Source of the DNA: Longimicrobiales bacterium
GTDB taxonomy: Bacteria; Gemmatimonadota; Gemmatimonadetes; Longimicrobiales; Gaopeijiaceae
NCBI GenBank assembly: GCA_965116905.1
Contig: OZ220732.1
Coordinates: 992,001 to 1,056,000 of the forward strand
Direction: 5' to 3'
DNA length: 64,000 bases
Below are positions 18,993 through 27,794 of this stretch, piece after piece. The notes below the pieces were generated by a model. That model ran no database searches. It was not told the origin of the DNA and was given only the letters and a program-made list of their open reading frames with translations. How positions within the stretch are numbered: position 1 is the stretch's first letter; each line of letters opens with the position of its first letter. Both the position numbers and the translations under genes were made by a program.

Positions 18993-19001
18993 GGCCCGTG
19001 T

Positions 19002-19030
19002 AGGATAACCGAATATATACCGAAGATCAA
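19002..19030 (-). promoter_or_regulatory. Sigma70-type promoter of imuB with direct-repeat operator in the spacer
   Basis: Minus strand TTGATC-[TTCGGTATATATTCGGT]-TATCCT-9 nt-ATG; same layout before imuA. Confidence 0.7.
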
Positions 19031-19078
19031 ATTTCCGGGCCATGGACGATTCCCTTGACCGAGCCCGTCCCATCCCGA

Positions 19079-19111
19079 CATGCCGGTGTCCCTGGATTTG
19101 CCGCGGAAACG
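19079..19111 (+). repeat. Left 33-bp inverted repeat
   Basis: CATGCCGGTGTCCCTGGATTTGCCGCGGAAACG, exact reverse complement of 21024-21056. Confidence 0.9.
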
Positions 19112-19117
19112 CGGGAC

Positions 19118-20605
19118 TCACGCGGCCTGGGCGGGCGGTGGGGGATTGTCCTCGCGTCTGCGGCGGTCCGGAACCTCGGGTCTGCGGTCGGTTCTGCGCT
19201 CGGCCATGCCGGCCTGCTCCACCGCCTCGCTTGGCTCGCCGGCCTGCTCCACTGCCTTGTCGGGCTCGCCGGCCGCCTCGCCCGCCTCCGGTGCCTGCTC
19301 CACCGCCTCCCTCGCCGCGGCCTCGATCTCCCATGGGATCGCCGAGTCCAGGAGTCGTGCCGCTCCGTTGTACATCTCGCCGGGGGCGAGCGGGGGCGGG
19401 GGCGGCAGAGGCAGCTTCGGCTCCGGCAGCGGGGGCGCGCTCGCGACCGCCGCCCCGCTGCGCGCGAAGAACACCGCCCGGCCGCGCCGGTCGAGCGCCA
19501 TCCGGACCCTGCCCTCGTGCACGAGCCGGTGATGCCGCCGGCACAGCAGCACCGTGTTCGCCAGACTCGTCTCGCCGCCGTCGGCCCAGTGCCGGACATG
19601 ATGCGCCTCGGTGAACCGGCTCCCGCAGGCCGGGTACCGGCAGCCCCGGTCCCGTTCCTCGAGCGCCCGGCGGAGGTGCGGCGGGATGGTCCGCGTCTTC
19701 CGCCCCACGCTGACGACCTTGCCCTCCCGGTGCAGCATCCCCACCAGCGACGCATCGCACGCCATGCGCCGCGACGTCTCGGCGCTCACCCGCACCCCGT
19801 CGAGCTCCGACCGGCCCCCCTCGCCGTCCTCCTCCAGCGTGGCCATCTCGGTGTGCACCGTCACCTGGTACCGCTCGGCCCGCGTCCCGCTCGGCGTCGC
19901 CTCCGCGTCCCCTTCCCCCGCGTCGACCCCAGTTCCCGCGTCGGCCCCCTCTCTCGCGTCGGCCCCCGCCCCCAGCCCCGCCGCCAGCGCCCGCTCGGCG
20001 ACGAGCCCCATCGCATCGGCCCTGCGCTGGCGGCTCCGTGGCCGCGCATCGGGGTCCTCGCCCCGGTACAGCGCGTCGCTCGCGGCCTCGATGGCCCGCA
20101 TCAGCACGGCACCCGCCTCGGGCTCGAGCCGGCCCCGCACCACGTACGTCCCGTCCGCGGCGATGACGACCGACAACGTGCGGGCCCGGTGCCGGGCCTC
20201 TTCGGCCCCGATCTCGCCGTCGCGCGACAGGTGCTTCACCCCCCGCACCATGCGCTCCACCGCCGCGGCCGAGCCCTTGCGGGCGTAGTCGAGGAGTTCG
20301 GCCTCGGTCCGGGACGTGGCCACCCGGGTGATGGCCCGGGCCTTGGCGTAGGAGAGCCGCCCGGCCTTCATCTCGGCCGAGGTGGCGGGCAGGTCCTCGA
20401 GCGCATGCGCGACGCGCACGTTCTCGCGGCAGGTGGCGACCGTGCGCCCGGTCCGCCAGGCGAGCCACTCGGCGCAGGAGTCGAAGGCGTCGGCCCACCC
20501 CTCGCGGCGGTCGAACTCGGCGACGAGGGTGAGCATCTCGTGGGTGGCGATGTTGATCCGGGCGGCGAGTTCGGCGATCCGCTCTCCGAGTTGCGTGGTG
20601 TTCAT
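19118..20605 (-). CDS. DUF222 (13E12-repeat-like) domain protein with C-terminal HNH endonuclease
   Basis: LVAEFDRREGW..FDSCAEWLAWRTG, GRLSYAKARAITRVAT, RRMACDA, RDRGCRYPAC, EAHHVRHWADGGETSLANTVLLCRRHHRLVH; GGAGGA RBS. Confidence 0.85.
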   Translation of the reverse strand: MNTTQLGERIAELAARINIATHEMLTLVAEFDRREGWADAFDSCAEWLAWRTGRTVATCRENVRVAHALEDLPATSAEMKAGRLSYAKARAITRVATSRTEAELLDYARKGSAAAVERMVRGVKHLSRDGEIGAEEARHRARTLSVVIAADGTYVVRGRLEPEAGAVLMRAIEAASDALYRGEDPDARPRSRQRRADAMGLVAERALAAGLGAGADAREGADAGTGVDAGEGDAEATPSGTRAERYQVTVHTEMATLEEDGEGGRSELDGVRVSAETSRRMACDASLVGMLHREGKVVSVGRKTRTIPPHLRRALEERDRGCRYPACGSRFTEAHHVRHWADGGETSLANTVLLCRRHHRLVHEGRVRMALDRRGRAVFFARSGAAVASAPPLPEPKLPLPPPPPLAPGEMYNGAARLLDSAIPWEIEAAAREAVEQAPEAGEAAGEPDKAVEQAGEPSEAVEQAGMAERRTDRRPEVPDRRRREDNPPPPAQAA

Positions 20606-21023
20606 GTGATCCTCCAGGTTCAAGTCCGGCAACGGCTTATGTGTGGTGAGACTGTCGCACCTGAAATTTAACCATGGATTTTTCGGCCTTCCGTACGGCC
20701 GCAGGACGCACGATCTCGGGGCAAAACGACGTGGAAGGGCCGCCGAAGCCCGTTCGCCCGTCAGCGGGCCGCCGGTGGCTCCTGGGGGCCACTCGCCAGC
20801 GGGTCCCGGACCTCGCCGTAACCGCCATTTCAAAACCCGTCTATAGCAGGATCGGCCTGTGTTTCGACGGTTTGGGACAGGGGGGGTTGGAGAGCGCGAT
20901 CCCGGGATCGGTCCGGGGGGATGGGCTGCGGAGATGGGCCAATGGGCTAACGGATGTTGCCTCAGTCTGGCCTGCGGCTGGCCGGGGCACCGAGGTGGCG
21001 GCTGCCGCGGATCGCCCCCCCCA

Positions 21024-21056
21024 CGTTTCCGCGGCAAATCCAGGGACACCGGCATG
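21024..21056 (-). repeat. Right 33-bp inverted repeat
   Basis: CGTTTCCGCGGCAAATCCAGGGACACCGGCATG. Confidence 0.9.
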
Positions 21057-26106: not shown

Positions 26107-26299
26107 TCTCGCTATTTGCTTCCTCGCGCTGTCTGATCCGCCACCGGCCGGCGGACCAGTCCCGCTCTCGCGGGCGGTTGGTTGCTTGGTCGAACTTAGC
26201 GGATCGGCCCGATGTGGTCTAGCAGCCCGTGGACAAAATCCCCCCGGCATTCGAGCGGCGATGCATCCGGGCCGGATGCTCGGCCTCACCTCCTCGCGC

Positions 26300-26317
26300 T
26301 GTAAACCAAAGTTTACA
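26300..26317. promoter_or_regulatory. Palindromic operator candidate TGTAAAC-N4-GTTTACA
   Basis: Perfect 7-bp inverted repeat in an AT-rich patch between divergent genes. Confidence 0.5.
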
Positions 26318-26527
26318 ATATGTCATGTTTACTATACGTCTTGGTTTGTCGGGCCCGCACTCTGCGTTGCTCCTCGGGCCCGTAGCGCTGCTACTGGCCC
26401 TTCGTCGCGCCTTGCCGGCCCGGCGCCTCACCGCTCTCGGTGCTCGGGCGGCTTTGTCCACGGACTGCTAGCATTGGAATCGGGCGGTTTCTCACCGTTG
26501 AAGGGATCTCACAACCCGCGTTAGGAC

Positions 26528-27094
26528 ATGACCTCACACGGAACCTCGGCCACGACCTGGCTGGCGCTGCTTCGCGGCATCAATGTCGGCGGCAGGAACG
26601 TGATCCGGATGGCCGAACTGCGGGAGTGCTTCGAGTCGGAAGGTTTCCGCGATGTCGTGACATACATCCAGAGCGGGAACGTGATCTTCCGTTCGGTGTC
26701 GTCCGGGCCCGGTGCACTGACGACGCGGATCGAAGGGATGCTGGCGGGGGCGTTCGACTACAGGGCGAAAGTCACGTTGCGGTCACGCGGGCAGATGCGG
26801 GCGGTGGTCGACGAAGCGCCGGAGGGGTTCGGCGTCCGGCCGGATGTCTACCGTTACGATGTCCTTTTCCTGATGCCTCCGCTGATGGCGGCCGACGCCA
26901 TGGAGCATGTCGGCACCAGGCCCGGCGTCGACGAAGCCTGGGCGGGCGAAGGTGTTCTCTACTTCTCCCGACTCATCGCCAGGGCATCCCGGAGCCACCT
27001 CGGCCGTATCGCCTCGATGCCCGTGTACCAGAGCATGACGATCCGCAACTGGAAGACGACGAGCCGGCTGCTGCAGCTCATGGAGGGGCACTAG
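26528..27094 (+). CDS. DUF1697 family protein
   Basis: ALLRGINVGG, TYIQSGNV, MTIRNWKT. Confidence 0.9.
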   Translation: MTSHGTSATTWLALLRGINVGGRNVIRMAELRECFESEGFRDVVTYIQSGNVIFRSVSSGPGALTTRIEGMLAGAFDYRAKVTLRSRGQMRAVVDEAPEGFGVRPDVYRYDVLFLMPPLMAADAMEHVGTRPGVDEAWAGEGVLYFSRLIARASRSHLGRIASMPVYQSMTIRNWKTTSRLLQLMEGH

Positions 27095-27756
27095 CAGCCC
27101 GGACTGCCGAGAGTGAGGGTCCACTCCGCCGGCCTTCCGCCGCGGCAGTGCTGCAGGGCGACGCGCCACTTCGTCCCGTCTGGAGCCGCCGTGACCCGCC
27201 AGCGGCTGACGGCGGCCCGCACCCCGGCCTCGGCTCCGCGCGACAGCATCAGTCCCAGCACGCCCGTCCCCTCGGCGGCCAGCATCAGGCGGCGCCCCGC
27301 TGCCAGGCCGGTCCCCCCGGTCTCGGCCACTACCCCCCGCACGGCCCGGCAGCGAAGCGCTTCCTCCATGGCCCACAGCATGTCGTCCCGGCGGCGCAGC
27401 CCCGACACGACCAGCAGCTGTCCCGCGCGGATCCCGTAGCGGACCAGCCCGGGAGCGTACAGGTCGTCGTCCCGGGCGAGCCACAGCAGCGCGCCGCGCC
27501 CGCCGCGCCTGCCGCGCGAGCCGCCGCATGCACGCGCCAGCAGAGCCGCGCAGAACCCGGTGGCGGCCTCATCTCCCGCCACCTCGTGGATGCAGCCCAG
27601 GCGCAGCCCGCCACCAGGGAGGGCGTGATCGATCTCGGGTACTCCCAACGGCAAACGCGGTTGCTCCGGCGATCCGGCTTCCTCGATTCCGCGGATCGCC
27701 CGGCGGAGCGCTTTCGCGGTGTCCCGCCGGCGCCGGTCCAAGGGTAAAGTGACCAT
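27091..27756 (-). CDS. imuA: ImuA (RecA-like mutasome accessory protein)
   Basis: LPLGVPEIDHALPGGGL..GCIHEV, LYAPGL, LWAMEEALRC, RRLMLAAE, SRWRV. Confidence 0.85.
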   Translation of the reverse strand: MVTLPLDRRRRDTAKALRRAIRGIEEAGSPEQPRLPLGVPEIDHALPGGGLRLGCIHEVAGDEAATGFCAALLARACGGSRGRRGGRGALLWLARDDDLYAPGLVRYGIRAGQLLVVSGLRRRDDMLWAMEEALRCRAVRGVVAETGGTGLAAGRRLMLAAEGTGVLGLMLSRGAEAGVRAAVSRWRVTAAPDGTKWRVALQHCRGGRPAEWTLTLGSPGC

Positions 27757-27765
27757 GGACCGGGC

Positions 27766-27794
27766 AAGATACCGAATAAATACCGTAATAGCAA
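27766..27794 (-). promoter_or_regulatory. Sigma70-type promoter of imuA with direct-repeat operator in the spacer
   Basis: Minus strand TTGCTA-[TTACGGTATTTATTCGG]-TATCTT-9 nt-ATG. Confidence 0.7.

Follow-up and report, generated by a model that had tools for sequence, protein, structure and literature searches.

A TTCGG-N6-TTCGG direct repeat upstream of imuA and imuB is very probably the LexA operator of class Gemmatimonadetes

We analysed a stretch of 64,000 nucleotides (nt) from a Longimicrobiales bacterium (positions 992,001 to 1,056,000 of contig OZ220732.1, assembly GCA_965116905.1), referred to below as the window, and focused on a direct repeat in the promoters of the mutasome genes imuA and imuB. 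Going by sequence, the identities of ImuB and the error-prone polymerase DnaE2 are clear. The imuA match is under its cut-off; imuA homologues are found directly before imuB in 14 relatives. Here the cassette is split: imuB and dnaE2 are adjacent, and imuA lies 8.1 kb upstream. The genes and predicted promoter elements are listed below, with scores from the genome scan that is described further on.

14170..17358, minus strand: dnaE2 (imuC), error-prone polymerase; NF004225 at 1438 bits, over the cut-off; overlaps the imuB stop codon
17355..18992, minus strand: imuB, 545 amino acids, Y-family polymerase homologue; PF00817 (IMS) and PF11799 (IMS_C)
19002..19007, minus strand: predicted -10 of imuB, TATCCT, 9 nt to the ATG
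19009..19024, minus strand: imuB operator box TTCGG-N6-TTCGG, predicted LexA site that fills the promoter spacer; top score of the genome scan (31.6); found in 8 split-type imuB promoters
19025..19030, minus strand: predicted -35 of imuB, TTGATC, 4 of 6 consensus positions; TTGAYN in orthologues
27091..27756, minus strand: imuA, 221 amino acids; NF033429 at E 2.8e-17 and 63 bits, under the 150-bit cut-off
27766..27771, minus strand: predicted -10 of imuA, TATCTT, 9 nt to the ATG
27772..27787, minus strand: imuA operator box TACGG-N6-TTCGG, predicted LexA site; scan score 29.8; present in 19 of 20 orthologues
27789..27794, minus strand: predicted -35 of imuA, TTGCTA; often TTGACA in orthologues

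Both promoters consist of a -35 hexamer, a spacer of 17 nt, a -10 hexamer and a further 9 nt before the ATG (18990-18992 for imuB and 27754-27756 for imuA), with the hexamers and spacings that an earlier, sequence-only annotation of this DNA (the original prediction) had described. Each matches the sigma-70 consensus at 8 of 12 positions, and a scan that demands 9 of 12 misses both. The geometry is kept in orthologues: a perfect TTGACA is common at -35 among those of imuA, and in imuA promoters of this pattern the distance between -10 hexamer and ATG is 6-9 nt. The 9 nt preceding either ATG contain no Shine-Dalgarno sequence, as had also been noted, and the promoter geometry suggests that the imuA and imuB mRNAs are near-leaderless. 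RNA contigs aligned to positions 14000-28500 covered genes and intergenic DNA evenly, and showed neither start sites nor expression. An RNA run with roughly half of the stretch has the label sponge metagenome.

The two promoters have a 15-mer in common, CGGTATWTATTCGGT, of which the 4.2-Mb genome contains exactly two copies, both here. When random pairs of 60-nt upstream regions were drawn, 72 of 200,000 draws had a common 15-mer (at most one mismatch). The position of the box within the spacer is shifted by 1 nt between imuB and imuA. The shared pattern had been proposed as TWCGG-N6-TTCGG; this is present at both genes, but the consensus is TTCGG-N6-TTCGG, as a TACGG first half is found mainly at imuA. 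TWCGG-N6-TTCGG has two matches in the window, compared with a mean of 0.35 in shuffled sequences, and because 5 of 100 shuffles reach at least two matches, the window alone is borderline evidence for the repeat. No similarity between the imuA and imuB promoters was found outside the box, which rules out promoter duplication as the origin of the shared box.

Across class Gemmatimonadetes, the exact box was found before lexA at 129 of 130 loci (29/30, 80/80 and 20/20 in three sets that overlap and were not deduplicated). Two tandem boxes precede lexA in most families, with the second copy downstream of the promoter. Upstream of lexA, half-sites separated by a spacer of 6 gave 239 matches and those separated by spacers of 2, 3, 4 or 7 gave none, so that adjacent half-sites are enriched at spacer 6 only. 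Inverted TTCGG arrangements were essentially absent upstream of the class lexA genes. At lexA, imuA and imuB, the box has a single orientation and a fixed place between the promoter hexamers, where it fills the predicted sigma-70 spacer. The sole lexA locus that lacks the direct repeat (L024, G030:C77) encodes a divergent LexA with 37% identity, has a CGAAC-N4-GTTCG palindrome instead and groups outside the LexA clade discussed below on a quick tree. Its genome also has a boxed lexA. L024 is probably either contamination of a Gemmatimonadetes assembly or a transfer. A palindromic box in family f4, which L024 had led us to suspect, is ruled out by the direct repeat in 20 of 20 further loci, mostly from f4.

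The box is not limited to lexA. It was found at 46 of 50 class recA loci, reversed in 21 of the 46, and in family f4 it lies downstream of the recA -10 hexamer. The original prediction had pointed to orthologous imu promoters as a check, and the box is present there: besides the imuA orthologues, imuB is boxed in all 7 genomes in which it is not directly behind imuA and in one further genome where imuA was not found, compared with none of the 14 genomes in which imuA ends within 500 nt. In genome G111, where the order is imuB...dnaE2-imuA (by eye), only imuB is boxed. Within the imu unit it is the leading gene that has the box, and because the cassette is split in the genome studied here, imuB has its own box. 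Among targets on which the scan matrix was not trained, a PA0069 radical-SAM gene was boxed in 25 of 29 orthologues, mostly in reverse, and a UvrC-like nuclease in 6 of 18 (6/6 inside the family and 0/12 outside). None of 47 in-gene controls was boxed. L210, a distant homologue whose anchor had been placed at the wrong end, was left out of the box calls, and L217 and L239 duplicate other loci.

In the genome itself, lexA is preceded by two tandem copies of TTCGG-N6-TTCGG and the single recA by a degenerate TTCGT-N6-TTCGG. We scanned the genome with a matrix built from orthologues of lexA, recA, imuA and imuB in other genomes, and called sites intergenic using genes predicted by a simple script. 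This yielded 15 sites with a score of at least 14, of which 14 were outside predicted genes; permuted matrices gave means of 3.25 and 1.0, respectively. The top sites are those before imuB, imuA, recA and lexA, the PA0069 radical-SAM gene, the UvrC-like GIY-YIG nuclease, pal, two DUF222-HNH genes and a C5 methyltransferase-Vsr pair (C1:1590287). One canonical LexA is encoded (TIGR00498 at 199 bits, over the cut-off). It aligns with E. coli LexA at the Ala-Gly site and at the Ser/Lys dyad, and its nearest relatives are labelled Longimicrobiales or Gemmatimonadota.

These results make it very probable that class Gemmatimonadetes has the direct repeat TTCGG-N6-TTCGG as its LexA operator (SOS box). 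This is based on the position and conservation of the repeat, its independence of orientation, its co-variation with the LexA helix and the way in which it follows the first gene. The original prediction had proposed a LexA operator, and as a predicted site this is supported by the presence of the box at the lexA, recA and imu promoters throughout the class. A LexA dimer would bind head-to-tail to two half-sites that are 11 base pairs (bp) apart on one face of the helix, and exclude RNA polymerase. Upon DNA damage, RecA-stimulated self-cleavage of LexA would release the box and switch on imuA, imuB-dnaE2, recA, lexA, the PA0069 radical-SAM gene and the UvrC-like nuclease, and the double box at lexA may provide tighter autoregulation. 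This would be a known kind of switch that works like any LexA operator, and because systems of this kind are well known, the surprise is modest. For a class that is abundant and little studied, the predicted operator would define an SOS box along with a compact core regulon, and a split error-prone cassette would keep its damage control by having the box on whichever gene comes first.

Several points weigh against this interpretation. The scan ranks of lexA, recA, imuA and imuB are partly circular, because the matrix was trained on their orthologues, and pal, parB and alanine dehydrogenase are among the matches with no clear link to repair. Of the genes for which the original prediction had suggested a scan, lexA and recA have the box, whereas no site was found within 300 nt of uvrA (two genes), ssb (two genes) or recN, nor of dinB; uvrA1 and possibly recN may be operon-internal. 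All boxed imuB promoters belong to one genus and therefore may reflect a single event. In other classes of the phylum, the box was found at 0 of 9 recA loci. Within Gemmatimonadetes, the fifth base of the first recA half-site is C in 13 and T in 11 of 51 cases, despite a LexA with Glu at the helix position described below. Lastly, the genome encodes a rival binder, a LexA-like paralogue adjoining gltX (C1:3061600-3062307, minus strand; L254:2100-2807) that has a LexA DNA-binding domain and is found in several families of the class.

If this paralogue or another conserved repressor bound the box, the canonical lexA would merely be one of its targets. We consider this very unlikely. The paralogue has neither the Ala-Gly site nor the catalytic Ser and Lys, and its gene is unboxed in this genome and in 7 of 7 relatives. 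Its helix also differs, whereas the box base changes with the helix of the canonical LexA, and the same box precedes the canonical lexA in the Patescibacteria-type loci described below. Slightly less probable still is that the repeat is a promoter element for an alternative sigma factor, or for a protein that activates damage genes, rather than a repressor site. Such an element would explain the single orientation and fixed place at lexA, imuA and imuB, but not the reversed boxes at recA and at most radical-SAM promoters, nor the boxes downstream of the -10 hexamer (recA of family f4) or of the promoter (second lexA copy); these reversed and downstream sites therefore indicate operator behaviour. 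A chance match or local duplication of one promoter, without any trans-acting factor, could account for the window by itself, given the shuffles, but is refuted by the comparative counts and has almost no probability left in view of the class-wide conservation at unrelated genes, the fixed spacer and the dissimilarity of the imuA and imuB promoters outside the box.

The fifth base of the LexA half-site varied with one residue of the LexA helix. By standard chemistry, Glu contacts cytosine, Lys contacts guanine and Gln contacts adenine. Residue 44 of LexA aligns to E. coli Glu45, which is listed as DNA-binding (PMC13416735). Among distinct LexA proteins, which include kin and are not independent, all 128 of the Glu type were boxed, with G as the fifth base in 478 of 482 half-sites. 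Of the 16 Lys-type proteins 12 were boxed, with C in 35 of 38 half-sites, and of the 84 Gln-type proteins 70 were boxed, with G in 130, T in 31 and C in 5 of 166. In the remaining classes of the phylum, where one protein is named Glassbacteria, the lexA box is TTCGC-N6-TTCGC and the helix has Lys, compared with Glu in Gemmatimonadetes. The same pairing of Lys and C was found at one Acidobacteria-like lexA, which stood apart from the other Lys types on the quick tree, although this tree leaves the relations between groups unsettled. Control lexA genes (Collinsella, Acetoanaerobium and Pseudoalteromonas) had their own known boxes, and the TTCGG direct repeat was found in 0 of 7 controls.

We think it reasonably likely that a TTCG(N) direct repeat is read by one LexA clade, with members in Gemmatimonadetes, Glassbacteria and related classes, Acidobacteria-like genomes and Patescibacteria, and that the fifth base is set by the residue equivalent to Glu45. 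Glu would select G, with the cytosine on the other strand, Lys would select C, with the guanine on the other strand, and Gln would accept G or T. The rule holds strictly at the second half-site only, because the first half-site of recA tolerates C and T, and the Lys data are limited to lexA promoters because no recA was boxed there. If true, this would be a natural one-residue switch of LexA specificity and a ready test system for LexA box change and head-to-tail binding. Of the testable parts, this rule of recognition by one residue is the most interesting. To our knowledge, the binding of a LexA dimer to direct repeats is structurally unsolved; the solved LexA-DNA entries that we retrieved are from E. 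coli.

A metagenome scan for Gln-type helices yielded 120 loci, of which 91 were LexA-like and 86 had sufficient upstream DNA. These lexA loci, with the helix S-x-A-T-V-H-Q-H, had TTCG-N7-TTCG in 71 of 86 cases and the exact TTCGG-N6-TTCGG in 55 of 86. Eight Gln-type LexA proteins were looked up, of which four are in clusters named Patescibacteria or Uhrbacteria and four are unnamed. On the quick tree, the Patescibacteria-type LexA proteins group with those of Gemmatimonadota (SH-aLRT 94). The original prediction had assigned the operator to the lineage of this genome. This needs widening: an identical box is located upstream of lexA in Patescibacteria-type loci, and so extends beyond the Gemmatimonadota lineage. 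A TTCGG-type LexA-binding motif of Patescibacteria was reportedly described by Sanchez-Osuna, Barbe and Erill in 2017. Sanchez-Osuna 2017 is cited for direct-repeat motifs in PMC7739468. The Gemmatimonadota box is probably the published Patescibacteria motif, as TTCGG-N6-TTCGG precedes lexA in both. The two differ in phylum and in the key helix position, which is Glu here and Gln there. Moreover, Gemmatimonadetes lexA boxes have a tighter G at the fifth base, most families have two tandem lexA boxes, and the regulon includes imuA-imuB-dnaE2. These findings connect the Gemmatimonadetes box with Patescibacteria and suggest a rule by which one residue sets LexA specificity. Several Patescibacteria-type LexA proteins (L296, L297, L301, L306, L310, L340, L347 and L353) extend into DNA methyltransferase-like domains, as judged by eye.

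The background on which the original prediction drew agrees with the literature, in which imuABC cassettes are SOS cassettes (PMC9578287) and direct-repeat LexA boxes exist (PMC7739468). In Alphaproteobacteria the LexA box is GTTC-N7-GTTC, which controls imuABC in Caulobacter (PMC9578287 Table 1, PMC8565304). This box is likewise a direct repeat, has a period of 11 bp and contains TTC as its core. However, the G before TTC is unconserved here, whereas the G after TTC is invariant, and the leading G frequencies of only 0.13 and 0.29 rule out that the two boxes are identical. The helices are unrelated as well (S-K-S-G-I-H-R-L in Shinella and S-L-A-T-V-H-E-H-L here). The Balneolaeota LexA recognises a direct repeat, TTACACATATTTTWTACATA, which precedes lexA, recA, translesion polymerases and a radical SAM gene, as seen here, but has another half-site sequence and was validated by electrophoretic mobility shift assay, whereas the present box is predicted from sequence (PMC7739468). 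The Gram-positive SOS box, CGAAC-N4-GTTCG (PMC9578287 Table 1), contains the TTCG word of the half-site, in a palindrome rather than a direct repeat. In the literature searched, which covered few subscription papers, we found no description of a Gemmatimonadota SOS box or TTCGG motif, and neither Patescibacteria nor Gemmatimonas is listed in the supplement of PMC8565304.

The region between imuA and imuB (21580-26106) contains a vWA-like gene (by eye), a MotA/ExbB gene and a gene with peptidoglycan-binding, coiled-coil and leucine-rich-repeat parts. Directly upstream of the imuB promoter is a DUF222-HNH gene (19118-20605, minus strand) that is flanked by 37-nt inverted repeats (19079-19115 and 21020-21056). 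The same repeat pair is found at three other places in the genome with near-identical DUF222-HNH genes (94-97% amino acid identity), which suggests that the segment 19079-21056 is a mobile element. The two DUF222-HNH genes that have a box upstream (C1:1145821 and 3587718; L245 and L243) share 42% identity with the type found in the window, which has no box. A MITE-like (miniature inverted-repeat transposable element) sequence of ~250 nt is located at 26219-26471, with imperfect inverted ends of 31 nt and 43 BLAST pieces genome-wide; a contig from a public run lacks it, passing from 26218 to 26468. Finally, a palindromic-looking word of 30 nt (21277-21314) occurs five more times in the genome, and two relatives have it upstream of imuB.

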